Source: Thermoanaerobaculia bacterium
GTDB taxonomy: Bacteria; Acidobacteriota; Thermoanaerobaculia; Gp7-AA8
Length of the DNA: 64,000 nt
Assembly: GCA_036390755.1 (NCBI GenBank)
Contig: DASWBH010000037.1
Coordinates: forward strand, 2,185-66,184
Reading direction: 5' to 3'
In this document: piece by piece, positions 16,446 to 59,625 of the stretch
How positions within the stretch are numbered: the stretch's first letter is position 1
Layout of the letters: the number at the start of each line of letters is the position of its first letter
Notes under the pieces: generated by a model
What the model was told of the DNA's origin: nothing
Databases searched by the model: none
What the model saw: the letters and a program-made list of their open reading frames with translations, nothing else
Made by a program: the position numbers and the translations under genes

Positions 16446-19594
<3,149 letters not shown>

Positions 19595-25586: not shown

Positions 25587-26139
25587 GCATCGGATCCTCT
25601 GGCGGAGGCTCGATCGGCCCGGTCACGAGTACGCGGGGCTGCGTCGCGACGGGTCGAACTGGCTGCTCAGCGGCGTGGCGGTGTTCGTCGACGACAAACT
25701 GCCGTGTCGTCTCGAATACGCGGTCGTGTGCAATGAAGCGTGGGCGACGCTGCACGCGTCGGTGAACGGCTCCGTCGGCTCGCGCGAAGTCAGCGCCCAG
25801 GTCAGCGCGCGTCCCGACGGTGTGTGGCTGCTCAACCGTGAGCCGTGTCCGCAAGTCGCCGGCTGCACCGATATCGATCTCAATTTCAGCCCGTCGACGA
25901 ATCTGCTCCCGATCCGGCGGTTGAATCTTGCGACCGGTGAAGAGGCGCACGTTCGCGCGGCGTGGCTCCGCTTTCCGGGCTTCACGCTCGAGCCGCTCGA
26001 GCAGACGTACCGACGGCTGAGCGGGCGCATGTTTCGCTACGAGAGCGCGGCAGGAACATTCGTTGCGGAGCTCGAGGTGGGCGAATTGGGTCTGCCGTTG
26101 CGGTACGGAGACATCTGGTCGGCTGATGCGGTGCTCTGA
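25579..26139 (+). CDS. Hypothetical protein (186 aa)
   Basis: ORF whose ends overlap both neighbouring genes. Confidence 0.45.
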   Translation: MAEHRILWRRLDRPGHEYAGLRRDGSNWLLSGVAVFVDDKLPCRLEYAVVCNEAWATLHASVNGSVGSREVSAQVSARPDGVWLLNREPCPQVAGCTDIDLNFSPSTNLLPIRRLNLATGEEAHVRAAWLRFPGFTLEPLEQTYRRLSGRMFRYESAAGTFVAELEVGELGLPLRYGDIWSADAVL

Positions 26140-26615
26140 TGTTTAGAGAAGTGCAGCTGCCCGACGGCATCCGCGGCAAGCTGTTCCTCCACAGCATGCC
26201 CGGTCGTCTGGAGCGATTCGCCGCCGCGCGCACAGCGATCGCCGACAGCGAAGTGAAGCACGTGGTCTGCCTCACCCTCGATCGGGAGATTCGCGAGATG
26301 AGTCCCGACTACGCGGCGGCGATCGAGGCAGGTCCGCCGTGGCGTCACGTCGCGATTCCGGTGCCGGACGGCGGGATTCCGAGTGACGCGGAGTCGTTCC
26401 GCGAAGCGGCGCGCTCGATCGCCGCGTTGCTGAAGAACGGCGAGAACGTCCTCGTGCACTGCGCGGCCGGCATCGGTCGCACGGGCACGTTCGCCGCAGC
26501 GGTGTTGTGCCAGCTCGGCGTCGCGCTTCCAGATGCGCAGCGCATCGTGCGCGCTGCCGGTTCGTCGTCCGAAAGCGACGCGCAACGGCGCTTTCTGCGC
26601 TCGATTTGCGAGTAG
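26139..26615 (+). CDS. Dual-specificity / tyrosine protein phosphatase
   Basis: CX5R P-loop (VHCAAGIGRTG). Confidence 0.7.
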   Translation: MFREVQLPDGIRGKLFLHSMPGRLERFAAARTAIADSEVKHVVCLTLDREIREMSPDYAAAIEAGPPWRHVAIPVPDGGIPSDAESFREAARSIAALLKNGENVLVHCAAGIGRTGTFAAAVLCQLGVALPDAQRIVRAAGSSSESDAQRRFLRSICE

Positions 26616-26626
26616 GATATCGCCCG

Positions 26627-27010
26627 ATGTTCGACCGGATGAAGGGCTGGATCAAGGACAAGAGCGAGTGGAACGAGCAGCATCGCCGCAACTGGGACCG
26701 CGCCACGATCCCGGCCAGCGACGGCTTGAGCATGCTGCAGCGGCTGCTCGAGACGCGGCTGGCGATGTGGCTCGCTGACGACGGCTGCGAGGTCGTCGAC
26801 CGGCAGTTGCTGCAGAACCCCAAGGGCGAGTACGTCGTGCGCTACAAAGTCGTGCCGGTCGGCGTCGACGTCTGGGTGTTCAACGCTGGCGTTCAGGCCG
26901 GGATCGGCGAACCCGAGCTGAAGCTCCACGACGGCGATGCGATCAGCCCCGACGAGCTCGCGAAGATGGTCGTGGACTTCGTGAAGAGCAAGCTGCCTCC
27001 GCGCGCGTAA
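26627..27010 (+). CDS. Hypothetical protein (127 aa)
   Basis: Internal ATG at 26627 chosen; the upstream extension is Arg-rich and overlaps the phosphatase gene. Confidence 0.45.
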   Translation: MFDRMKGWIKDKSEWNEQHRRNWDRATIPASDGLSMLQRLLETRLAMWLADDGCEVVDRQLLQNPKGEYVVRYKVVPVGVDVWVFNAGVQAGIGEPELKLHDGDAISPDELAKMVVDFVKSKLPPRA

Positions 27011-27014
27011 CGGG

Positions 27015-27566
27015 ATGGCCGGCCGGTTCTTTTCGTTTGTCGGCGGCGACGGAGGCGCGTGGCGAGTGACGCGAATGGCCGCGATCACCGGCCAGAGTCT
27101 CGAGCGCGTCGAACGGCTCCACGTCGTCGAGAAGCGGCTGGAGAGTCCGCCCGCGAACGCAGAATGGGTCCTCCGCGGCGTCACCAGCTACGAACGCTAC
27201 GTGACGGCGGCGGAGCAACAGCAACTTCGCGCCAGGCAGCCGCCCGTCGGCCGGCCTGAGGCCACTCGCGCGGCGCTGATTCCCATACGCAAATCGGACG
27301 AGTGGTGGCAATTGCCGCACGACGAACGCCGGCGCATCTTCGAAGATCGATCCGCGCACATCGCGACAGGGCTCCGGTATCTGCCTGCCGTCGCGCGCCG
27401 CCTGCATCACGGCTACGAGCTCGGCGAGCCGTTCGATTTCCTGACATGGTTCGAGTTCGCGCCGGGCGATGCGCACGCCTTCGAAGAGCTCGTCGGAGAG
27501 TTGCGGCGCACGGAGGAGTGGCGCTTCGTGATTCGCGAGGTCGATGTGAGAGTGGAGCGCGACTGA
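27015..27566 (+). CDS. Chlorite-dismutase-like (Cld/HemQ-family) protein
   Basis: IPIRKSDEWWQLPHDERRRIF...DFLTWFEF resembles short Cld-family proteins (assigned from memory of the family). Confidence 0.45.
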   Translation: MAGRFFSFVGGDGGAWRVTRMAAITGQSLERVERLHVVEKRLESPPANAEWVLRGVTSYERYVTAAEQQQLRARQPPVGRPEATRAALIPIRKSDEWWQLPHDERRRIFEDRSAHIATGLRYLPAVARRLHHGYELGEPFDFLTWFEFAPGDAHAFEELVGELRRTEEWRFVIREVDVRVERD

Positions 27567-27570
27567 GGAC

Positions 27571-28233
27571 TCACGATGCCCCCAGCGTCTCCAGAAATCC
27601 GCGAGCTGCGTGGTCGAGTGTCGGATTCGTCTGCGCGCCGACGCCGCCGGCCTCGACCACCAGCACGTGCGGCGACTCGACCGAATCGGGCGACTTCTCG
27701 TGCCGCTCGAGCCCGCGCAGCTCCTCGTGGCGGCTGTTGCCGTAGGTGAGGAATCGAACGTCGGCGAAGCCGGCGCGTCGCAGCAGCGCCGCGAGCGTCG
27801 TCGCGTTGAACAGAAACTGATGACCCCACCCGCGGAACGACGTGTTCAGAGCGAAGCAGTTCCGGATCGCGTCGTTCGCGCCGTACTGCGTCGCCACGAC
27901 CCAGTCGAGATTCGGCGTCGACAGACGCAGCACGCCGTCGTCCGCCAGTGCGCTCCGGCAATCGCGCAGAAATCGCTCGCACTCCCAGTACGGCAGATGC
28001 TCGATGAAGTGCTCGGCGAAGACAAAGCGCAGATCGTGAAACGGAAGCCCGTCGCGGACGTCGAGCACGTAGTCGACGCCCCGGTAACGCCGCACGTCGA
28101 TGTTGATCCAGCCGTCGAGATGTACGGGACCGCAGCCGACGTGCAGCTTGCCGCCGGGAGGCAGCCGGCGGCATCGCCACGCGTTGTACGACTTTCTCGC
28201 TGTGCGCCACCAGTGGCGGAGGATGCCGGTCAT
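27571..28233 (-). CDS. SAM-dependent methyltransferase
   Basis: Methyltransferase-11-like fold (LHVGCGPVHLDGWINIDV). Its start forms an ATGA overlap with the hydrolase stop. Confidence 0.65.
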   Translation of the reverse strand: MTGILRHWWRTARKSYNAWRCRRLPPGGKLHVGCGPVHLDGWINIDVRRYRGVDYVLDVRDGLPFHDLRFVFAEHFIEHLPYWECERFLRDCRSALADDGVLRLSTPNLDWVVATQYGANDAIRNCFALNTSFRGWGHQFLFNATTLAALLRRAGFADVRFLTYGNSRHEELRGLERHEKSPDSVESPHVLVVEAGGVGAQTNPTLDHAARGFLETLGAS

Positions 28234-29051
28234 TTCGCCGCGGCCGTTTTGATGAAGCGCGTGACGGTGTCGTAGTAGCGCTGCTGCTCGGCGTTCGCCA
28301 GCTCGCAATGGCCGGCCGTCTCGCTGACGAGCAGCTCCTTCGGCACGCGCAGCTGCTGATAGAGCGACATGCCGAGCTTGAACGGGATCACCTGGTCGGG
28401 CTTGCCGTGCATGACCAGCACCGGCGCGCCGGCGGCGTTGAGCCAGCGAGCGGTCGTGAGCGCGAGCGGCGCCGTCCAGCCGAGGGGAATCGGCGCGTAC
28501 AGCGCGTTGCCGAGCTCGGCGAGCGAGGGGAACGAATTCTCGATCACCACGCTTTGCGCGCCGCGCTCCTTCGCCACGTACGCGGCATACGGGCCGCCGA
28601 GGGATTCGCCGTAAAGACTGATGTCGGAGGTCAGCTTGCGCGCGTGGTCATACGCGGCGATCGCGTCGATGAACAGCGCGTTCTCAGCCGGTATGCCGTC
28701 GCTCTTGCCGTAGCCGCGCCAGTCGAACAGCAGCACCGAGATGCCGCGCGCCGCCAGGTTCGCCGCGATCGGCCCGCGCTCTCCGATGTTGCCGCCGTTG
28801 CCGTGGAAGTAGACGAGCAGCGGCGCGTTCGCGTCGCGTGACCGAAACAGCCACGCGTTGAGCCGGACTCCGTCCCGCGTCGTGATCCATTGCTCTTCCG
28901 GCTGCACCGCGAATGACGACGTGTCCCAGAATCCTTCCGGATACCGCAGCGGGAAAAACATCGATCCGCGGCGGACGTGCTGGGCGAAGAAGTAGAGCGC
29001 GACGGCTGCGACGACGGCGACGACGGCAGCGGTCGCGAGGAGGCGGATCAC
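28230..29051 (-). CDS. Membrane-anchored alpha/beta hydrolase
   Basis: N-terminal TM segment, HGNGGN oxyanion region, GESLGG nucleophile elbow. ATGA overlap with the actin-like gene. Confidence 0.7.
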   Translation of the reverse strand: MIRLLATAAVVAVVAAVALYFFAQHVRRGSMFFPLRYPEGFWDTSSFAVQPEEQWITTRDGVRLNAWLFRSRDANAPLLVYFHGNGGNIGERGPIAANLAARGISVLLFDWRGYGKSDGIPAENALFIDAIAAYDHARKLTSDISLYGESLGGPYAAYVAKERGAQSVVIENSFPSLAELGNALYAPIPLGWTAPLALTTARWLNAAGAPVLVMHGKPDQVIPFKLGMSLYQQLRVPKELLVSETAGHCELANAEQQRYYDTVTRFIKTAAAK

Positions 29052-30082
29052 GCCGATAGTTTTTCCCAGTCTGTCTCCGGCGCGTCAAGGGCCAGCGCGA
29101 GACCGCCGTCGGATCCGACGAACACGGGATCCTCCATGTACGTCACGCGTCCGCCGCCGACTTCGCGGAGCGCGGCTTCGAGCGCCTGCGGCAGATTGCG
29201 AATCAGTCCGCCGCCGCCCGACAGGATGATGTTGTTGCGCACCTTCTCCTGGAACTCCGGTTCCACGCGCGAGAGCAGGTCCAGCATCGTCTCGATCGTC
29301 GGAGCGAGGAGGGTCTCGCACGCCGCTTTGAGCTCGTCGGTGATGTCGAGCTCCGTCGGTACGCCCTTCACCGGCGCCGTCACGACCGCGCGCCGGCCCG
29401 GATCGCCGACGAAGCTGAACTTCTCCTTCCACTCGCGCACCATGAAGATCGTGACGTTCGCCTGCGGGAAGCGCTCCTCGATGAGCCCCAGCAGGTGCGC
29501 ATCGATCGAGTCGCCGGCGATCGTCAGCGTCCGCTGGTCCTCTTCGGTCGGATAGCGGCCCTTCATGACGCAGAAGTCGGTGGTGCCCGCGCCGATGTCG
29601 ACGATCATCGTGTTGAGCAGCGCGTCGAGTCCGTACGCGACGGCGAACGGCTCCGAGACGATCATCAGACTGTCGACGATCCCTTTCATCGAATTGCGCA
29701 GGTACTGCTTGTTCGTGCGCAGCGCCGCGGCGGGTACGCCGACGACCGCCCGCACGTTCGACGTACGCGCCTTGCCGTTCGCGTTCACGCCGACGAGTCC
29801 GAGCAGATGCCGGAGCAGCTCGCGGACCGCTTCGACATCCTTTTCCGATCCTTCCTTGAGCAGGCCGCGCTCGAGAGGCCGATGGAGGTCGAGCATGGTC
29901 CGGTTCGACACGGCTTCGTGTCCGATGAGCACCTGGCGTTTGAGGACTTTCTTCGCGACCATGTCCACGGGCCATCCGACGAAGCTGTCGACGACGAAGC
30001 GCTCGCCGTTCGACGCGGAGATTGCGCTCCGCGAGGTGCCGAGGTCGATGCCGACGTGAAGAAGCTCGGAGGGTGCGGACAT
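29048..30082 (-). CDS. Actin-like ATPase, MamK family
   Basis: The MamK motif set is shared across the whole protein, and the sequence is closer to MamK than to MreB or ParM. Motifs: phosphate-1 GIDLGTS, connect-1, VSEPFAVAYGLD, IVDIGAGTTD, KEKFSFVG, ILSGGGG. Confidence 0.8.
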   Translation of the reverse strand: MSAPSELLHVGIDLGTSRSAISASNGERFVVDSFVGWPVDMVAKKVLKRQVLIGHEAVSNRTMLDLHRPLERGLLKEGSEKDVEAVRELLRHLLGLVGVNANGKARTSNVRAVVGVPAAALRTNKQYLRNSMKGIVDSLMIVSEPFAVAYGLDALLNTMIVDIGAGTTDFCVMKGRYPTEEDQRTLTIAGDSIDAHLLGLIEERFPQANVTIFMVREWKEKFSFVGDPGRRAVVTAPVKGVPTELDITDELKAACETLLAPTIETMLDLLSRVEPEFQEKVRNNIILSGGGGLIRNLPQALEAALREVGGGRVTYMEDPVFVGSDGGLALALDAPETDWEKLSA

Positions 30083-30084
30083 CG

Positions 30085-31107
30085 TCAGGTTCCTTTCTTT
30101 CGGGGCGACTCCGCCGCTCCCGCGTACGCTCGAATCCCTTCGAACAACGCCTCGGCGATCTTCTGCCGGTAGTCGGCTTTGCCGAGCATGGCCGCTTCTT
30201 TCTGGTTCGAGAGGCAGCCGATTTCGGCGAGGATTGCCGGCATCTCGGTCGCGACGAGCACGACGAACGGTGCGCGCTTCACGCCCCAGTTCTCGAGGCC
30301 GGGGTCGTTCGCGCGGAGCTGCCCGAAGAGCCGCTGCTGCACGGTACGGGCGAGCTGCCGCGACTCGTCGCGCCGCGCGTCCGCGTAAATGCCGTCGAGC
30401 AGCTTGCGCAGATCGGCCATCGAATAGCCGGACATGCTGTTCTCGTCGGCGGCGAGTTTAGTCAGCGACGGATCGTCGGTCGGGCCGAGGTAGTAGGTCT
30501 CGACGCCGTGCGACGCGGTGTGGTTGACGATCGAGTTGACGTGGATCGAAACGAAGACGTCGCTGCGCGATTCGTTGGCCAGACGCGCGCGATCGCGGAG
30601 GCGGATGGTGCGGTCGTCGCCGCGCGTGACGATGACTTCGAAGCCGCCGCGCTCGAGGATTCGCTTCAGGCGGCGGCCGACGTCGAGCGTCACGAATTTT
30701 TCCTCGAGGCCGAGCGCGGAGGCACCGGGATCGGTCCCGCCGTGGCCCGCATCGAGAACGACGCGGCGGACGGCCAGGGGGAAGGCCGAGGCGGCGACGC
30801 GCTGGAGGGGATCGGGCGTCGCGATGACTTCGGGCGTCGCGGCAGCCAGCGCGTGCACGGGCGCGGGAGACGGCTGCGCCGGAGGTGCGGGTGAGGGCGT
30901 GGCCTGATTCGCGACGAAATACGTCGAGCCGGCGAGCGCGAAGGCGATCAGCACGGGAGCGCGCCGCAGCCACACGTTCAGCAGCCGCTTCGGCCTTTGG
31001 AGCGACCGAGGCGGCAAGCCGCGAATGGTGGCGACGTTCTCCGCGATGGCCTGTTTCAGCAGGCGCCGCCGCATTCGTTCGATTCTGTCCGCGCTCATTC
31101 CGCTCAC
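30085..31107 (-). CDS. N-acetylmuramoyl-L-alanine amidase (Amidase_3), bitopic
   Basis: About 45-aa cytoplasmic tail, one TM helix, and a periplasmic Amidase_3 catalytic domain (VVLDAGHGG...SIHVNS...YYLG). Confidence 0.85.
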   Translation of the reverse strand: MSGMSADRIERMRRRLLKQAIAENVATIRGLPPRSLQRPKRLLNVWLRRAPVLIAFALAGSTYFVANQATPSPAPPAQPSPAPVHALAAATPEVIATPDPLQRVAASAFPLAVRRVVLDAGHGGTDPGASALGLEEKFVTLDVGRRLKRILERGGFEVIVTRGDDRTIRLRDRARLANESRSDVFVSIHVNSIVNHTASHGVETYYLGPTDDPSLTKLAADENSMSGYSMADLRKLLDGIYADARRDESRQLARTVQQRLFGQLRANDPGLENWGVKRAPFVVLVATEMPAILAEIGCLSNQKEAAMLGKADYRQKIAEALFEGIRAYAGAAESPRKKGT

Positions 31108-31177
31108 CCGATCGACGATTTGACGTCAACGATTCTAACTCGGCCGCTAGAATGCCCCGCGAAAGGAGTCATCCGAG

Positions 31178-31393
31178 ATGGCGGACAACAGAGTCTACAA
31201 ACTGGTCGAGCTCGTCGGCACGTCGGAGAAAGGCTTCGCCGAGGCGGTCGCGACGGGCGTCAAACGCGCGGCGAAAACGCTCCGCAACATGGACTGGTTC
31301 GAGGTCACCGAGCTGCGGGGCCGGGTCACCGGGAACAAGGTCGCGCAGTATCAGGTGAAGCTGAAGGTCGGGTTCCGGCTCGACGACGAGTAG
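31178..31393 (+). CDS. Dodecin (flavin-binding)
   Basis: 71 aa, strongly dodecin-like (VELVGTS...W(F)EV...KV.F). AAAGGAG RBS. Confidence 0.8.
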   Translation: MADNRVYKLVELVGTSEKGFAEAVATGVKRAAKTLRNMDWFEVTELRGRVTGNKVAQYQVKLKVGFRLDDE

Positions 31394-32489
31394 GCGAAGG
31401 GTTGTCGGTTATCGGTGCTGACGACCGATAACCGACAACCGACAACTCACTCCGGTTTCGCGAACTCCTTCTCGTGGTCTTCGCGTTCAATCTGATCTCG
31501 CTGTATGTCCGGGTCGCTCCGGCACGCGGATCGACCGTAACGACCTTGACGACGAACGGCAGCTTCATGCCGTCGACTTCGCGATAGTCCGAAAAGTCGG
31601 TCTGCTGCGGAATGAGACCGATGGGTGTCGGCGTCAGGCGGATGCGGCGAACGAGCAGACCGGTTTCCGCGTCGAAGTAGAGTCGCTCGCGTCCGTTCTC
31701 GCCGAATCGGGCAACCATCAGATAAGCGTCGCGATCGCCGACCTTCGTCAGCAGGTGCACGCGAGCATTGGCCGGGATGTCGTTCGGAAGCGTCGGCCGG
31801 TACGCGTTGGCGATCATCGTGGCGGTCTCGATCTGATTCGGCTCCATCGCGCGCGTGCCTTTTGCGTCGCGCACCCATCCGCTGCTGCCGTCGATGACGT
31901 TCACCATCTCGCCTTGCGGAGTCATTCCGGTTGCGCGCATCCTGCCCGGCGCGATCACGACGTCGATGGGTGTCTTTCCCTGCTGCGCCTCGCGCACGCC
32001 CTTCAGTTCCATGGTCGCGAGCGCTTTCTCGTTGAGGTTGCCCAGCGCTTTCGCATAGCGCGCGACGACTTCATCGCGCGTCGGCAGCGGCGGCTTCGGT
32101 GCGGCCTGTGCCTCCGCGGGCCGTGGCACGAGCGCGATCGGCAGCACCGGAACGCTGACGGGGTTCGGCGCACCGCGGTGGCAGGTTTCGCACGAGACCT
32201 CCGTCTGTCCTTTGAAGTACTTCACGTTCGTGTCGATGACGAGCTGCATCATCTGACGTGCAGTCTTCTTCTCGTCCTTGGCGTCGTTCGGGAGATCGAG
32301 CTCGCCGTTCGCGGCGCGCACGTGGCAGAAATCGCAAGTGACACCGAGCGAGGCGGAGATGAACTGCATCGCCCGAAACAGCTGACCGGGCGTCAGGCCC
32401 TTCAGCACCTGCACGTTTTTCAGCTCCTGCTGGCCAGCAGCAGTGGTCGCGATCAGCGCGAGTGTCACAGCAAACGTCATTCGCTTCAT
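31326..32489 (-). CDS. Diheme c-type cytochrome domain protein (3' end uncertain)
   Basis: Signal peptide; two CxxCH motifs (CDFCH, CETCH) followed by a C-terminal domain. The ORF runs through the 31400-31446 hairpin and overlaps dodecin by 68 nt; an alternative frame stops at 31447. Confidence 0.55.
   Translation of the reverse strand: MKRMTFAVTLALIATTAAGQQELKNVQVLKGLTPGQLFRAMQFISASLGVTCDFCHVRAANGELDLPNDAKDEKKTARQMMQLVIDTNVKYFKGQTEVSCETCHRGAPNPVSVPVLPIALVPRPAEAQAAPKPPLPTRDEVVARYAKALGNLNEKALATMELKGVREAQQGKTPIDVVIAPGRMRATGMTPQGEMVNVIDGSSGWVRDAKGTRAMEPNQIETATMIANAYRPTLPNDIPANARVHLLTKVGDRDAYLMVARFGENGRERLYFDAETGLLVRRIRLTPTPIGLIPQQTDFSDYREVDGMKLPFVVKVVTVDPRAGATRTYSEIRLNAKTTRRSSRNRSELSVVGYRSSAPITDNPSPTRRRAGTRPSASPDTARPCSR
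31400..31446. terminator. Perfect 16-bp heptamer-built hairpin
   Basis: GGTTGTCGGTTATCGG-tgctgacga-CCGATAACCGACAACC, plus an extra GACAAC unit. Confidence 0.6.
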
Positions 32490-54031: not shown

Positions 54032-55090
54032 GTGTTCTTCTCAAAGAGCAAAAATGTCGTTGGTCTTGATATCGGCTCCTCAGCAATCAAGCTTGTCGAG
54101 CTGAAGGAGAAGAAGGGCGGCACTTATCAACTCGTGAAGCTCGGAGTTGAGCGCCTCTCTCCGGAAGCGATCGTCGACGGCTCCATCATGGACTCCTCCA
54201 TGGTGGTCGAGACGATCTCGCGGTTGAACAGCGAAAAGGCCGTTAAGAATTCCAATTACGCGACGTCTCTCTCCGGCCACTCCGTCATCATCAAGAAGAT
54301 CACGCTTCCGGCGATGTCGGCCGAGGAGCTGGCGGAATCGATTCAGTGGGAGGCGGAGCAGTACATCCCCTTCGACATCAACGACGTCAACCTCGACTAC
54401 GTGCCGCTGAGCTCTCCCGGTGGCGGGGACAACATCGAAGTGATCCTGGTCGCGGTGAAGAAGGAGAAGATCAACGACTATACGTCGGTGATCAGCCAGA
54501 CGGGGAAAGTGCCTGTCCTCGTCGACGTCGACGCCTTCGCTCTGCAGAACTGCTACGAGATCAATCACGACGTGAGCGAAGGGAAAGTCCTCGCCCTCGT
54601 GAACATCGGCGCCTCGGTCACGAACGTGAACGTGATGAGCGGAAGGAACTCGCTCTTCTGGCGCGACATCACCTTCGGCGGCAACCAGTACACCGATGCG
54701 ATTCAGCGCGAGCTCTCGCTCTCCTTCGAGCAGGCTGAAGAGCTCAAGCGCGGACGGGCGGTGGCGGACTACACGATCCAGCAGGTCATCCCGATCCTCA
54801 ACTCGGTCTCTGAGGACTTCGCCGGCGAGCTGCGGAAGACGCTCGACTTCTTCACCGCAACATCGGGCGCCGAACGCGTCGACGAAATCGTTCTGGCCGG
54901 CGGCGGCTCCGGTGTGCTGAATCTCGACGCGATCCTCCGCGACAAGTTCGGCATCCCCGTCTCGATCATGGACCCGTTCCGCAACGTGACCGTCGACGAG
55001 AGCGAGTTCAACCCCGAGGAACTGGCGGAGATTGCGCCGAGCATGGCGATCGCGGTCGGTCTCGCCTCAAGGAAGTTGGGGGACGCTTGA
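54032..55090 (+). CDS. pilM: Type IV pilus assembly protein PilM
   Basis: Actin-like PilM signature (VVGLDIGSSAIKLVEL). GTG start. Confidence 0.9.
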   Translation: MFFSKSKNVVGLDIGSSAIKLVELKEKKGGTYQLVKLGVERLSPEAIVDGSIMDSSMVVETISRLNSEKAVKNSNYATSLSGHSVIIKKITLPAMSAEELAESIQWEAEQYIPFDINDVNLDYVPLSSPGGGDNIEVILVAVKKEKINDYTSVISQTGKVPVLVDVDAFALQNCYEINHDVSEGKVLALVNIGASVTNVNVMSGRNSLFWRDITFGGNQYTDAIQRELSLSFEQAEELKRGRAVADYTIQQVIPILNSVSEDFAGELRKTLDFFTATSGAERVDEIVLAGGGSGVLNLDAILRDKFGIPVSIMDPFRNVTVDESEFNPEELAEIAPSMAIAVGLASRKLGDA

Positions 55091-55773
55091 TCAAGATCAA
55101 TCTGGTGCGGGAAGGGCGGGCGGTCCGGGGAGCAGGCATGGCTCCATCGGTCGCTGCAGGTGTCGGCGCGGCAGCACCCGCCAACATCAACAATCTCATC
55201 GTGATCGGCCTCATCGGCCTCAGCATCGTCGTGGCCGCGGCGTACTGGTTCATCAACAACCGCACGCTGGCCCGGCGGCAGGGAGAAGTGGCGACGCGCA
55301 AAGCTGAAGCGGAGAAGCTCGAGTCGATCATCAAAGAGGTCGAGGACTTCCAGAAGCGCAAGGACAGCCTGCAGAACCGCATCGATCTGATCAACCAGCT
55401 CAAGCAGAGCCAGAAGGGTCCCGTGCGGATCATGGATCAGATCAGCCGCGATCTGCCCGATCTGGTGTGGCTCGACAGGATGTCGATCGCGGGCGGACGC
55501 ATCACTCTCGCAGGACGCGGGCTCAACCCGAACGCGATCGCGAACTTCGTCGAGAACATCAAGAACGATCCGTACTTCGAAGAGCCCGAGTTCGGGAACG
55601 TGACCGAAACGGCGCCGACAACGCCGGTGGTCTACTCGTTCGACATGGCGTTCAACTTCTCGTACGCGCCGAAGACGCCGGGTGCGGCGCCGGCAACGCC
55701 CGGAGCAACCGGCACGGCAGGAACGACGTCGACGACGGGCACGGGCGCTCGGCCCGGTGCGCCGGCGCGGTGA
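55087..55773 (+). CDS. pilN: Type IV pilus assembly protein PilN
   Basis: IKINLV N-terminus, one TM helix, and a coiled coil. TTG start overlapping the pilM stop. Confidence 0.8.
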   Translation: MIKINLVREGRAVRGAGMAPSVAAGVGAAAPANINNLIVIGLIGLSIVVAAAYWFINNRTLARRQGEVATRKAEAEKLESIIKEVEDFQKRKDSLQNRIDLINQLKQSQKGPVRIMDQISRDLPDLVWLDRMSIAGGRITLAGRGLNPNAIANFVENIKNDPYFEEPEFGNVTETAPTTPVVYSFDMAFNFSYAPKTPGAAPATPGATGTAGTTSTTGTGARPGAPAR

Positions 55774-55783
55774 GGAGACGACG

Positions 55784-56440
55784 ATGGCGATCAGTTTGAA
55801 TGACCAGCCCTGGTACGTCGCTCTCGGCGTCGGCATCCTCGTCGCGGGCGTGATCCTGTACGGAGTCCACGCCTATCTCGTGCAGCCGATCAAGGATCAG
55901 ATCTCCGGCGCCGAAGCGCAGATCGCGGAGTACGACAAGAAAATCGAACAGGGACGCGCCGCGGAGCGGAAGCTTCCTCAGTTCCGCGAGGAGGTGCGCC
56001 GACTCGAGCTCGAGCTCGAGAAACTGCGCCGCATTCTCCCGTCGACGCGCAACACCGAAGAGATCATCAAGAAGATCAAGTCGCTCGTCGATCAGGGCGA
56101 CTTCGGTCTGAAGAAACTCGTCTTCCCGAAGCTTGCTGAGGTGAAGGGTTCCGATCCGTACGCCGAGTGGCCGATCTCCGTCTCCGTCGACGGCCGCTAT
56201 CACGATCTGGCGATCCTCTTCAATCGCCTCAGCAACTTCTCGCGCATCATCAACGTCGAGCAGATCAACATCACGGCGCTGTCGGTCCAGACGACGAAGA
56301 CGATCTCGTCCGACTTCATCGCGAAGACGTTCGTCTATGTCGAGCCGACCGCCGGCAAGGGATCGAAGGACAAGAACAAGACGGGCGGCACCGGAACATC
56401 GAAACCGGGCGGTGGAACCGGAACGGCGGGTGGCGCATGA
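55784..56440 (+). CDS. pilO: Type IV pilus assembly protein PilO
   Basis: One TM helix, a coiled coil, and a PilO domain. GAGGAG RBS; ATG at 55784. Confidence 0.8.
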   Translation: MAISLNDQPWYVALGVGILVAGVILYGVHAYLVQPIKDQISGAEAQIAEYDKKIEQGRAAERKLPQFREEVRRLELELEKLRRILPSTRNTEEIIKKIKSLVDQGDFGLKKLVFPKLAEVKGSDPYAEWPISVSVDGRYHDLAILFNRLSNFSRIINVEQINITALSVQTTKTISSDFIAKTFVYVEPTAGKGSKDKNKTGGTGTSKPGGGTGTAGGA

Positions 56441-57024
56441 GCGGGGGCACCGCGCCGATGAAGAGCTGGAGATTCGCGGCGTCGCTGTCGATCGTCGTCC
56501 TCGCCGTCGTCACGGTGATGGCGCAGACGGCGCGTCCCGGCGCGACAAGCACGTCGACGACAGGAACTTCGGCCACGGCGACCACCGGCACGACGTCGAC
56601 CGCAAAAACGTCGACGACCGGCACGAGCGTGCAGCAGACGCTCGAGGAGATTCTCGAAGAGCCGCAGGGCGGCGAGACGTATCGCTACGACCCGCAGGGA
56701 CGGCGCGATCCGTTCCGGTCGCTCGTCGGTCCCGCGCCGAAGCTCGAGCCGGGCCAGCGGCCTCCCGGAGTTCCGGGATTCCTCATCGATGAAATCAAGC
56801 TGACAGGCATCGTCCGTACGAAGCAGGGGATCGTCGGTGTCATCAGCGGTCCTGACAACAAGGGTTACCTCATTCGCGTGGGAGACAAGGTCCTCGATGG
56901 CGAGGTCATTCGCATTACCCCAACCTCCGTTGTCTTTCGGCAGGAGGTCAACGACCCAACTCGCATCGAGCGGTACCGCGAGGTGGTCAAGGACCTGACT
57001 CCGCCTTCCGAACAGAAGCGTTAA
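56437..57024 (+). CDS. pilP: Type IV pilus assembly lipoprotein PilP
   Basis: T/S-rich linker followed by a PilP beta-domain (KLTGIVRTKQGIVGVI). ATGA overlap with pilO. Confidence 0.75.
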   Translation: MSGGTAPMKSWRFAASLSIVVLAVVTVMAQTARPGATSTSTTGTSATATTGTTSTAKTSTTGTSVQQTLEEILEEPQGGETYRYDPQGRRDPFRSLVGPAPKLEPGQRPPGVPGFLIDEIKLTGIVRTKQGIVGVISGPDNKGYLIRVGDKVLDGEVIRITPTSVVFRQEVNDPTRIERYREVVKDLTPPSEQKR

Positions 57025-57060
57025 GGGCAGAGTGCAGGCTGGGGCTGCGTGGAGGGTGAG

Positions 57061-59625
57061 ATGAAGGTGGGAAGGATGAGTAGAGGCAAGCGAACCCTGC
57101 TGGTAACGGCTACGTTCCTGCTCGCGGTCGGCAGTCTGAACGCCGGACTGTGGAGATCGCGGAAGCCGCAGCCGACTCAGAAAGCCGCACCGGCTGTGAC
57201 CACGATGTCGGTAACCGCCATCGACGTCGACGCGTCGCGCGTGATGCTGAGGACCAGCGGCGCTCCGGCCTACACGTCGTACAGCCCTTCGCCCGACATG
57301 TTCGTGGTCGACCTGACCGGCGCCTCCCGTCCCGCGGACCTGAGCATCCCGACGACGCTGCCTTCGCCGGTCGCATCGATGACCGCCGAAGAAGCGGTGG
57401 AGATGGGCAGCAAGTTGACGCGCGTGACATTCCGGCTGAAGCAGCCGGTGACGCCGCAAACGTCGGTCGCAGACAACACCGTGGTGATCACGATTCCGGC
57501 ACCGGCGATCGCCGATGCGCCGCCCGTCGTGACTGAGAAACCGGCTGCGCCGGTTACTGTCGCCGAGGTGACGCCGCGGGTCGAGGCGATGCCGGAGCCG
57601 CCTGCGCCCGTGAAGACGGTCGAGCCGGTCGTCAAGGCTGAGACCGCGCCGCTGCCGAACGCGAAGTCTGTCCGTCGCGTGATGACGACGGGCAAGGGCA
57701 CATCGCTCGAAGTCGACATCGCCGGCGACGGCGCCTTGACCAATTACAAGTCCTTCAAGCTCGCGAATCCGGATCGCCTCGTGATCGACATCAAGGGCGT
57801 GAAAGACCGCGTCGCGAAGCCTGCCGTGAACGTGGAAGACGGTGCCGTGAAGCGCGTGAGAGTCGCGCAATTCGAGGCGGACGTCACTCGCGTCGTCCTC
57901 GATCTGAACGGGAAGACGCCGTACTCGGTCACACCTTCCGGCGACATGCTGCGCGTGAGGTTCGGCGAGAACGCGAAATCAGCGATGGCCATCGCTCCGC
58001 CGCCGGCGGCCCCTTCTGCACCGGCCGCTCCGCCAGCGACGGCTTCGGTCAACGTGACACCGGCCACGACTGCCGCGCCGGCGATGAAGAAGGATGAGCC
58101 GGCGAAGGTCGCCGCTGCAGACATCCCGTCGCAGGTTCCGACGGTCGCCGAGGACGCGACGTGGAAGATGCCGGCGAATACGCGGCAGGTCATCAACGCC
58201 GCGGCCGATCAGTACCCGCCGGCCACACCCGCTCCGCGCACGACCACAACCAGCGCTCCCCAGCCGAGCACCAACACCGCAACGCCGGGCACGACGCCCA
58301 CGGGCTCAACGACGACGACAGAAAACGTCTTCGACGACGCCGCCAAGCAGACTGCCGGGCAGCCGCAGGTCGGCGGCGGGAACGTACAGAGCGGACATCT
58401 GCTGAGCGGAACGCAGCGCGTGTTCACTGGCGATCCGATCTCGCTCAACCTGAAGGATGCGGACATCAAAGACGTGCTGCGCACTTTCGCGCAGCTCACC
58501 GGTCTCAACATCGCGGTGGACCCGCAGGTGACCGGAACGGTCACGGTCGACTTCGTCGATGTGCCGTGGGACCAGGCGCTCGATCTGATCCTTCGTCAGA
58601 ACGGGCTCACGTTCGTTCTCGAAGGGAACGTGATGCGCGTCGGCACGATCCAGCGTCTCGCCGCGGAGTCGGAAGCGACCGCGAAGCTCGCCGAGCAGGA
58701 ACGCCTCAGCGTTCCGACGACGACGCTCAGCTTCAAGCTTTCGTACGCGCGCGCGGCCGAAGTTGCCACCCTGCTGCACGATCTGGCGTCGCCGCGCGCC
58801 CGCATCATCGTCGACTCGCGCACGAATCAGCTGATCGTCAGCGAGATTCCGCAATACCTGCAGGTGATGCGCAACCTCATCGACACGGTCGATATCCCGA
58901 ACCGTCAGGTGGTCATCGAGGCGCGCATCGTTGAGACCACGAAGATCTACAACCTGCAATACGGCTTCTCGTGGAGCTTCAACGGACTGCTCGATCCGGC
59001 TCTCGGAACGGGCACCGGCCTGATCTTCCCGAACCGCGTCGGCTTCACCGGTGGTCCGTTCAGCTTCACCGGCGGCGCCGCCAACGTCCTCGGCATCTCG
59101 CTGACGGACGTCCTCGGCACGTTCACGCTCGACCTCGCACTCGCCGCGGCCGAGACCAACAGTCTTCTGAAAGTCATCTCCGCGCCGAAGGTAACGACGC
59201 AGGACAACACGCCGGCCGAAATCCAGAGCGGCGTGCAGATCCCGTATCAGACACGCGTCAACTTCACGACGACGGTCCAGTACATCGACGCCACGCTGCG
59301 CCTGTCCGTCACTCCTCAGATCACCGAGGCGGGGACGATCATCATGGATATCTCCGTGCAGAAGACGACGCCCGGTCAGCCGATTGAAGGCGCGGCCGGC
59401 ACGCCGCTGAACACGCGGCAGGCGCGTACGCGCGTGATGGTTCGCGACGGCGGAACGGCCGTCATCGGCGGCATCTATCAGGCCAGCGACACGTCTGCGC
59501 AGAGCGGAATCCCGGTGCTGAAAGACATCCCTGTCCTCGGCGCGCTGTTCCGTTCGCACTCGCAGAACACGCAACATGACGAGCTGCTGATCTTCATCAC
59601 GCCGCGCATCGTGAGGGGGTCATAA
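57061..59625 (+). CDS. pilQ: Type IV pilus secretin PilQ with N-terminal AMIN domains
   Basis: Two AMIN-like domains, N0/N1 domains, and a secretin C-domain (VISAPKVTTQDN...GGIYQ...VLGALF). Confidence 0.9.
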   Translation: MKVGRMSRGKRTLLVTATFLLAVGSLNAGLWRSRKPQPTQKAAPAVTTMSVTAIDVDASRVMLRTSGAPAYTSYSPSPDMFVVDLTGASRPADLSIPTTLPSPVASMTAEEAVEMGSKLTRVTFRLKQPVTPQTSVADNTVVITIPAPAIADAPPVVTEKPAAPVTVAEVTPRVEAMPEPPAPVKTVEPVVKAETAPLPNAKSVRRVMTTGKGTSLEVDIAGDGALTNYKSFKLANPDRLVIDIKGVKDRVAKPAVNVEDGAVKRVRVAQFEADVTRVVLDLNGKTPYSVTPSGDMLRVRFGENAKSAMAIAPPPAAPSAPAAPPATASVNVTPATTAAPAMKKDEPAKVAAADIPSQVPTVAEDATWKMPANTRQVINAAADQYPPATPAPRTTTTSAPQPSTNTATPGTTPTGSTTTTENVFDDAAKQTAGQPQVGGGNVQSGHLLSGTQRVFTGDPISLNLKDADIKDVLRTFAQLTGLNIAVDPQVTGTVTVDFVDVPWDQALDLILRQNGLTFVLEGNVMRVGTIQRLAAESEATAKLAEQERLSVPTTTLSFKLSYARAAEVATLLHDLASPRARIIVDSRTNQLIVSEIPQYLQVMRNLIDTVDIPNRQVVIEARIVETTKIYNLQYGFSWSFNGLLDPALGTGTGLIFPNRVGFTGGPFSFTGGAANVLGISLTDVLGTFTLDLALAAAETNSLLKVISAPKVTTQDNTPAEIQSGVQIPYQTRVNFTTTVQYIDATLRLSVTPQITEAGTIIMDISVQKTTPGQPIEGAAGTPLNTRQARTRVMVRDGGTAVIGGIYQASDTSAQSGIPVLKDIPVLGALFRSHSQNTQHDELLIFITPRIVRGS

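Follow-up and report, generated by a model that had tools for sequence, protein, structure and literature searches.

A MamK-superfamily actin is encoded beside a putatively membrane-anchored cell wall amidase in several bacterial phyla

Why should a MamK-like actin be encoded directly behind a cell wall amidase, with no magnetosome genes around it? The question is raised by a 64,000-nucleotide (nt) stretch of DNA, here called the window, from a Thermoanaerobaculia metagenome-assembled genome (MAG), phylum Acidobacteriota (GCA_036390755.1, contig DASWBH010000037.1, positions 2,185-66,184). Positions 27571-31107 of the window hold four tightly packed minus-strand open reading frames (ORFs), encoding an amidase, an actin-like ATPase, an alpha/beta hydrolase and a methyltransferase. 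All four had been located in an initial annotation of this DNA, and Pfam agreed with the domain identities given there for each of them and for the divergently transcribed dodecin gene (Table 1). We found that the amidase and the actin form a two-gene module which is widespread, appears not to have been described before, and can be recognized by a diagnostic motif at the N terminus of the amidase. The initial annotation was aware of no description of this pairing, and full-text literature searches combining MamK or MamK-like with amidase yielded no paper linking a MamK-like actin with an amidase.

The window actin is a member of the MamK/BeeR superfamily; it is neither an MreB nor a partition actin, and nothing shows it to be a magnetosome MamK. 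Although MreB_Mbl is its top Pfam match (74 bits), accompanied by Actin, the NCBIfam models gave 375.7 bits to MamK (NF040964; E 1.8e-112, residues 8-343 against positions 1-331 of the 335 in the profile), 208.8 bits to BeeR and only 44.6-67.6 bits to the MreB models. The cut-offs of these models are 400 bits for MamK and 293-515 bits for MreB, so that the protein falls just under the former. A sequence search of the PDB returned MamK at 268 bits (E 1e-78, full length), BeeR at 125 bits and MreB at about 44 bits, with identities of 42% to MamK, 31% to BeeR and 22% to Caulobacter crescentus MreB. The actin motifs quoted in the initial annotation are all present, and the far closer match to MamK than to MreB that it reported is borne out by both searches. 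An AlphaFold2 (AF2) model of the protein (predicted local distance difference test, pLDDT, 87.3) had the MamK filament as its top Foldseek match (5ljv_A; E 9.8e-40, TM-scores 0.91/0.96, root-mean-square deviation 1.6 Å), followed by BeeR at 7.8e-32, with eukaryotic actins and MreB at about 1e-22, approximately 17 orders of magnitude weaker than MamK. The ATPase residues D13, G15, E144, D162, G164, D169 and G289-291, which comprise the phosphate-binding motifs, the catalytic glutamate E144 and the adenosine motif, are intact. No membrane-binding element was found in the window actin. A 100% identical protein is recorded from a Thermoanaerobaculia MAG.

An exhaustive search for this protein among 1.84 billion cluster representatives returned only 186 at E <= 1e-30. 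In a bootstrapped neighbour-joining tree, the window actin and a 70%-identical representative (P0121) formed a clade of their own with 100% support, apart from both the AMB-1 MamK clade, whose own groupings had 71-98% support, and the BeeR clade. The amidase-linked representative P0159 joined the window clade at 63%. Resolution was confined to such shallow clades, with deep nodes reaching at most 25% and no firm placement for P0127. A tblastn search of 72,556 plasmids and 50,697 phages gave no match at E 1e-10, and the match to Alp7A_like_C was only 17 bits, under its cut-off. Profiles, PDB matches, tree, fold and replicon searches thus place the protein outside both the MreB clade and the plasmid-partition actins. 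The MamK-family assignment made in the initial annotation holds at the level of the superfamily; it does not demonstrably extend to magnetosome MamK, the window clade standing apart from that of AMB-1 MamK in the tree.

We examined how far the amidase accompanies this actin. A scan of species-representative genomes, one per species, identified at least 509 that encode an actin relative, and gene neighbourhoods were inspected in the best 80 of these, at 65-92% actin identity, from Thermoanaerobaculia, Vicinamibacterales, Holophagales, Binatia, Methylomirabilota and others. Upstream DNA is available for 78 of these loci, and each of the 78 has the amidase immediately upstream of the actin on the same strand. 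A metagenome scan seeded with a second clade gave the same arrangement in 75 of 75 loci with upstream DNA, bringing the pairing to 153 of 153 testable loci in Acidobacteriota, Nitrospirota, Desulfobacterota, Pseudomonadota, Methylomirabilota and Binatota. The complete genomes OY970284.1 and OY970380.1 are among those with the pair. The two genes are closely spaced: in 70 of 89 loci the actin start lies between -11 and +8 nt from the amidase stop, and in the window the gap is 2 nt (30083-30084). Adjacency is therefore conserved far beyond close relatives, and the chance juxtaposition that the initial annotation had weighed as its alternative is not upheld.

The surroundings of the pair, in contrast, are not conserved. 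A 92%-identical relative keeps all four genes next to a different downstream flank, whereas in a 70%-identical Acidobacteriota relative the amidase alone remains, located 4 nt upstream of the actin, and ligA follows the actin. The amidase is also directly upstream in a 50%-identical Nitrospira clade, in a 43%-identical clade, and on Defluviicoccus, Desulfobulbaceae and Syntrophobacteraceae contigs, where the flanking genes are unrelated to those of the window; at each locus inspected, housekeeping genes make up the flanks. No conserved candidate cargo gene was seen beside the pair in the 70%-identical Acidobacteriota, Nitrospira, Defluviicoccus, Desulfobulbaceae or Syntrophobacteraceae contigs. 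In the set of 80 genome loci, the hydrolase gene comes after the actin at 32 of the 53 where actin identity is 80% or higher, and at none of the 27 where it is 76% or lower; the methyltransferase is found downstream only in L011 and L013 (L001 and L002 being one and the same locus as L013). What is conserved is the amidase-actin pair and not the four-gene operon: the pair proposed in the initial annotation stands, while the hydrolase is confined to about 60% of the close soil clade and the methyltransferase to a few of the nearest genomes.

The part of the amidase that sets this family apart is its N terminus. A predicted helix of about 22 residues, which would lie in the cytoplasm, carries the family motif hydrophobic-L-x-x-A/G-V-x-E/D-E/D/N-N-L (LLxxAVxENL). 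With 2.83 bits per alignment column, this helix is nearly as informative as the catalytic domain (3.07 bits) and exceeds both the hydrophobic helix (2.19 bits) and the linker (1.31 bits) that separate the two. N24 is conserved in 76 of 77 sequences, A20 in 72 of 77, and a lysine or arginine at position 13 in 76 of 76. In the window clade the motif takes the form LLxEAVAENL, and in the second clade the form ILRGVYEENL, with recognizable variants in the Nitrospira and 43%-identity clades. A strict regular expression matches 121 of 135 distinct amidases against a background of 0.01 per 150 residues, and the sequences it misses are one-residue variants. The persistence of this helix across phyla strengthens the case for the proposed direct contact between filament and amidase.

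AF2 modelled the amidase as two N-terminal helices, the second at residues 34-48, followed by a hydrophobic helix, a disordered stretch and the catalytic domain. The start codon has three candidates (GTG 31107, ATG 31098 and ATG 31074, the last corresponding to the 329-residue NCBI product). All aligned orthologues have a hydrophobic segment at the same place; for six orthologues of distant clades its Kyte-Doolittle score is 1.4-2.7. The strongly basic flank preceding it predicts an N-in orientation. Model and basic flank therefore lend support to the cytoplasmic tail and single transmembrane (TM) helix described in the initial annotation, although the topology is a prediction. The linker that follows varies from about 40 to more than 100 residues between clades. 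Two other explanations for this region were considered and rejected. A signal-anchor-release (SAR) endolysin does not fit an anchor that is strongly hydrophobic in other clades, at Kyte-Doolittle scores of 2.1-2.7, and a context of chromosomal housekeeping genes, and a twin-arginine translocation (Tat) signal does not serve as a general explanation, since distant orthologues retain the upstream helix but lack the RR.

The catalytic domain belongs to Amidase_3 (165.5 bits, E 1.6e-48), and H122, E136, H189, N191 and E295 are invariant, the first three and E295 among 59-81 homologues. By the motifs of AmiC and CwlV, H122, E136 and H189 would be zinc ligands and E295 the catalytic glutamate. The protein aligns end to end with Bartonella AmiB (3ne8), Escherichia coli AmiA (8c2o) and E. 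coli AmiC (4bin), and E. coli AmiA is the best Foldseek match of its AF2 model. These alignments include the conserved insert at residues 208-265 (pLDDT 50-68), which CwlV and AmiC2 lack; the match to these two falls into two parts. In AmiA, AmiB and AmiC, the matching region is the autoinhibitory element. Scores against the NCBIfam equivalog models were nevertheless far under the cut-offs (AmiA 93 bits against 400, AmiC 87 against 700, AmiB 86 against 532), and Pfam found no AMIN domain, the N terminus being occupied by the conserved helix and the TM segment instead.

Based on these observations we propose, with moderate confidence, that amidase and actin constitute a two-gene module in which the filament binds the amidase helix and thereby positions an AmiA/B/C-type amidase. 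The actin would polymerize in the cytoplasm, as is expected from its membership of the MamK superfamily and its intact ATPase site. The amidase would be inserted with its N terminus in the cytoplasm, offering the conserved amphipathic helix to the filament as a handle, while the single membrane helix and the flexible, length-variable periplasmic tether would bring the zinc amidase domain to the peptidoglycan. The filament would then govern how the amidase is placed, gathered or moved along the envelope, and hence where cleavage can occur, with daughter-cell separation and local wall remodelling as candidate roles. Since the tether is disordered and unconserved, such coupling is more likely to be positional than allosteric, and the catalytic domain would probably still require separate release of its putative AmiB-type autoinhibitory insert. 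The hydrolase and methyltransferase would be downstream additions of the window lineage, outside the core.

Several points weigh against this proposal. The hydrophobic segment of the window amidase itself is weak (Kyte-Doolittle below 1.5) and preceded by RR, so that in the close clade it may be a Tat-type signal. In the amidase-linked P0159 clade, the catalytic glutamate of the actin is replaced by alanine (VSAPL) and the phosphate-2 motif is degenerate (GARSSD), which suggests a hydrolysis-deficient filament variant and means that ATP-driven dynamics may not be universal. In addition, all of the organisms are represented by MAGs, so their taxonomic labels rest on binning.

The alternative that survives best, although we regard it as unlikely, reverses the polarity of the system. 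Here the amidase would serve mainly as an envelope anchor, its helix tethering the filament to the membrane and, by way of the peptidoglycan-binding domain, to the wall while the filament does another job, such as cargo positioning, shape or polarity. Conservation of the pair and of the cytoplasmic tail would fit this arrangement equally well, as would the lack of a membrane-binding element in the actin, and the arrangement would resemble the need of MamK for its adaptors MamJ and MamY. MamK-family filaments are, moreover, known as positioning devices (PMC11929497). However, neither the catalytic residues nor the putatively regulatory insert of the amidase varies between phyla, which argues that hydrolysis, and not just anchoring, is under selection, and the inspected loci offer no conserved candidate cargo.

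Somewhat less probable again is co-expression without contact, in which the two proteins would act in a shared process such as division, and the helix would bind another cytoplasmic partner or contribute to export or targeting as part of a long Tat or Sec n-region. Adjacency in an operon is by itself no proof of binding, and the sequence WLRRAP precedes the hydrophobic stretch in the window amidase and its close relatives. E. coli AmiA and AmiC are Tat substrates, which also counts in favour of this explanation. Yet distant orthologues have lost the twin arginine and kept the helix motif that lies 25-35 residues upstream of it, and it would be unusual for the n-region of a signal peptide to be conserved across several phyla at 2.8 bits per column. 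Furthermore, the actin and the amidase with its motif stay paired in genomic contexts that are unrelated.

That the actin is simply an MreB paralogue engaged in ordinary rod-shape maintenance is very improbable. Pfam ranks MreB_Mbl first, and nearly all homologues (P0001-P0120, P0412-P0530) are labelled 'rod shape-determining protein MreB' by NCBI/JGI, a few being called 'MamK family actin-like protein'; but the NCBIfam, PDB and identity comparisons all favour MamK by a wide margin, and no mreC, mreD or rodZ adjoins the window actin. Least probable of all is a remnant or part of a magnetosome system, or a mobile cassette of a plasmid or phage actin with an SAR endolysin, since the resemblance to MamK, the weakly hydrophobic, Gly/Ala/Ser-rich anchor of the window amidase and the occurrence of the pair in unrelated contexts of different phyla, which suggests horizontal transfer, are outweighed by housekeeping flanks in every inspected locus, the lack of magnetosome-type families in the window, the negative plasmid, phage and defence-system searches, strongly hydrophobic anchors in other clades, and a dodecin synteny within the soil Thermoanaerobaculia clade that is consistent with vertical descent there.

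The proposal that the filament positions the amidase can be taken further, although only tentatively. The module may be a self-contained cytoskeleton-hydrolase machine, in which a MamK-like cytomotive filament grips the helix of a bitopic amidase and positions or transports it, and the amidase-linked lineage may be a major, perhaps ancestral, branch of what is called the MamK family, with magnetosome MamK as a specialized offshoot. We consider this wider picture possible but doubtful.

Not every MamK-like actin is paired with an amidase. Four other clades lack an amidase neighbour: one with an actin near parAB and bactofilin, one with a stand-alone actin, one with an actin inside a chemotaxis cluster, and the BeeR clade, represented by one member. 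Within the first of these, P0130 (L009:8001-12606 and L010) lies beside a cytidylyltransferase-like gene, a V4R protein, a bactofilin and parB-parA-gidB. P0143 (L093:1-4507) belongs to a chemotaxis cluster in the order CheA C-terminus/CheW, CheC, CheD, actin, a 291-residue protein of unknown type and CheC/CheX. A further, well-separated clade (P0131-P0154) consists of proteins of 500-1232 residues with the MamK-like actin domain at the C terminus, and the N-terminal extensions of 200-900 residues had no Pfam match.

Turning to the remainder of the operon, the hydrolase and methyltransferase genes are joined by the ATGA overlap described in the initial annotation (28230-28233), which was likewise correct about the 2-nt gap upstream of the actin. 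The overlap of actin and hydrolase (29048-29051), however, reads GTGA rather than ATGA, as the hydrolase starts with GTG. The N-terminal hydrophobic segment of the hydrolase has a Kyte-Doolittle score of 2.4. A promoter and terminator scan of 27300-31500 found no signal above shuffled expectation. Directly 3' of the dodecin stop codon there is a perfect 16-bp inverted repeat (31401-31416/31424-31439) with a 7-nt loop, probably a bidirectional terminator. The same repeat falls within the last ~35 codons of a minus-strand cytochrome ORF (31326..32489), making the annotated end of that ORF doubtful. On the other side of the operon, downstream on the plus strand, 26139-27566 encodes a DSP-type protein phosphatase (of the polymorphic-toxin-associated Tc-R-P/PTP-SAK families) and a chlorite-dismutase-like protein; in the 92%-identical relative, different genes occupy this flank.

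Elsewhere, the window has the content of an ordinary chromosome, including hrcA-grpE-dnaK-dnaJ, ligA, IMP dehydrogenase, succinate dehydrogenase, relA/spoT, pilM/pilO and a pilQ secretin. None of approximately 50 window ORFs scanned belongs to a magnetosome-type family (CDF, LemA, magnetochrome and Trypsin-PDZ among them), in agreement with the absence of mam genes noted in the initial annotation, and a PADLOC search for defence systems gave no significant match. The window ligA (16626-19004) lies 10 kb from the pair. In the 70%-identity Acidobacteriota clade, ligA is the next gene downstream of the actin (L003:7455-9509), and its proximity in the window may go back to an older synteny. At 54032-59625, pilM, pilO and a PilQ secretin with an AMIN domain form a type IV pilus assembly cluster, and with PilM the window holds a second actin-fold ATPase.

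Table 1. Features of the amidase-actin locus, in window coordinates; codons are those of the amidase.
Feature	Position	Strand	Remarks
Putatively bitopic N-acetylmuramoyl-L-alanine amidase	30085..31107	-	340 aa from GTG 31107; first gene of the conserved pair
Conserved N-terminal cytoplasmic helix (predicted), codons 9-30	31018..31083	-	IERMRRRLLKQAIAENVATIRG; AF2 helix 6-28; proposed actin-filament contact site
Hydrophobic TM/signal-anchor segment (predicted), codons 49-66	30910..30963	-	AF2 helix 50-65, pLDDT ~80; after an Arg/Lys-rich flank
Pro/Ala-rich periplasmic linker (tether; predicted), codons 67-109	30781..30909	-	Disordered in the AF2 model, pLDDT < 50; least conserved part of the amidase
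Amidase_3 catalytic domain, AmiA/B/C type, codons 114-331	30115..30768	-	Includes the ~55-aa insert, residues 208-265
MamK-superfamily actin-like ATPase	29048..30082	-	344 aa; second gene of the conserved pair
Membrane-anchored alpha/beta hydrolase	28230..29051	-	273 aa, GTG start; Pfam Hydrolase_4 and Abhydrolase_1; lineage-specific accessory
Class I S-adenosylmethionine (SAM) methyltransferase	27571..28233	-	220 aa from ATG 28233; Pfam Methyltransf_23, E 5e-9; lineage-specific accessory
Dodecin gene, divergent	31178..31393	+	Pfam Dodecin, E 2.8e-28

Bacterial actins with a known job are few, namely MreB, FtsA, the ParM-like proteins and MamK, and the placement and restraint of peptidoglycan hydrolases is a long-standing question. 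The pair described here bears on both: this compact system of two genes seems to tie a wall-cleaving enzyme firmly to an actin filament by means of a short, recognizable helix in the cytoplasm. Soil, sediment and nitrifier lineages that are abundant, but of whose cell biology little is known, carry it widely, and it offers both a testable hypothesis, binding of the helix to the filament, and a diagnostic motif for finding the system. The MreB label on most database entries is misleading, and so is the name 'MamK family', which NCBI uses for some members of a sister amidase-linked clade. Given that a large share of MamK-like sequences is amidase-linked and non-magnetosomal, care is needed in using mamK as a marker gene for magnetotactic bacteria.

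Among characterized proteins, the closest relative of the window actin is MamK (5ljv/5ljw/5jyg; NF040964), with which it shares full-length similarity, a superposable fold, the same ATPase motifs and the lack of a membrane-binding element. Unlike MamK, it is encoded outside any magnetosome gene cluster, forms a clade apart from that of AMB-1 MamK in the tree, and has an amidase as its fixed partner rather than MamJ, MamY or the mamAB genes. BeeR is a MamK-related, three-stranded tubular actin from non-magnetotactic Verrucomicrobiota, of unknown function (PDB 8r2n; PMC11929497), and Bbp ('big bacteria protein') is a MamK-related actin of large sulfur bacteria and cable bacteria, encoded in an operon of bbp, a hypothetical gene and a Kelch-like gene (PMC10580974). 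Bbp, like BeeR, comes from non-magnetotactic bacteria and has no known function, and both illustrate that the MamK superfamily extends well beyond magnetosomes. BeeR differs in having a disordered N-terminal extension of 30-50 residues, which the window actin lacks, and in the absence of an amidase neighbour at an inspected locus of its clade, while the word 'amidase' is absent from the main text of the Bbp report (PMC10580974). Mad28 is a MamK-related actin reported from deep-branching magnetotactic bacteria. In the literature found, none of the three is described with an amidase.

The control proposed here, of a periplasmic Amidase_3 by a cytoplasmic actin-family protein, has a parallel in the E. 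coli FtsA-FtsEX-EnvC-AmiA/AmiB pathway, and the AmiA/B/C cell-separation amidases (8c2o, 8c0j, 4bin, 3ne8) are of the same insert-containing subtype as the window enzyme. In contrast to the FtsEX-EnvC route, the link here would be direct, through the helix and TM segment of the amidase itself, and neither an ABC-like transducer nor a LytM activator is encoded at the locus. The window amidase also differs from AmiB and AmiC in carrying no AMIN or other septal-targeting domain. LytH and CwlD are both among the structural or sequence matches of the window amidase, LytH being a moderate one by sequence (62.9 bits). LytH, as in LytH-ActH (7tj4), is an N-terminally anchored Amidase_3 that needs a dedicated partner, similar to the anchored amidase predicted here, but no gene for an ActH-like polytopic, TPR-containing activator is present at the locus, and the partners of LytH and CwlD (CwlD-GerS, 7rag) are a polytopic membrane protein and a lipoprotein, respectively, rather than a cytoskeletal filament.

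Short cytoplasmic segments that bind a bacterial actin, and so couple it to an envelope or cargo function, are a recurrent theme in RodZ-MreB, FtsN-FtsA and ParR-ParM. Those of RodZ and FtsN belong to bitopic proteins, and the amphipathic helix of ParR docks in the cleft between subdomains of its actin. None of these three adaptors is itself a peptidoglycan hydrolase, and none shows sequence similarity to the amidase helix motif. Conversely, MreBH and LytE of Bacillus subtilis provide a precedent for an actin homologue that directs a wall hydrolase, but LytE is a secreted NlpC/P60 endopeptidase and is not genetically fused to a cytoplasmic tail. Taken together, these comparisons suggest that the amidase-actin module would differ from RodZ-MreB, FtsN-FtsA, ParR-ParM, MreBH-LytE and FtsA-FtsEX-EnvC-AmiA/B in one respect, namely that the hydrolase itself appears to carry the peptide that faces the cytoskeleton.

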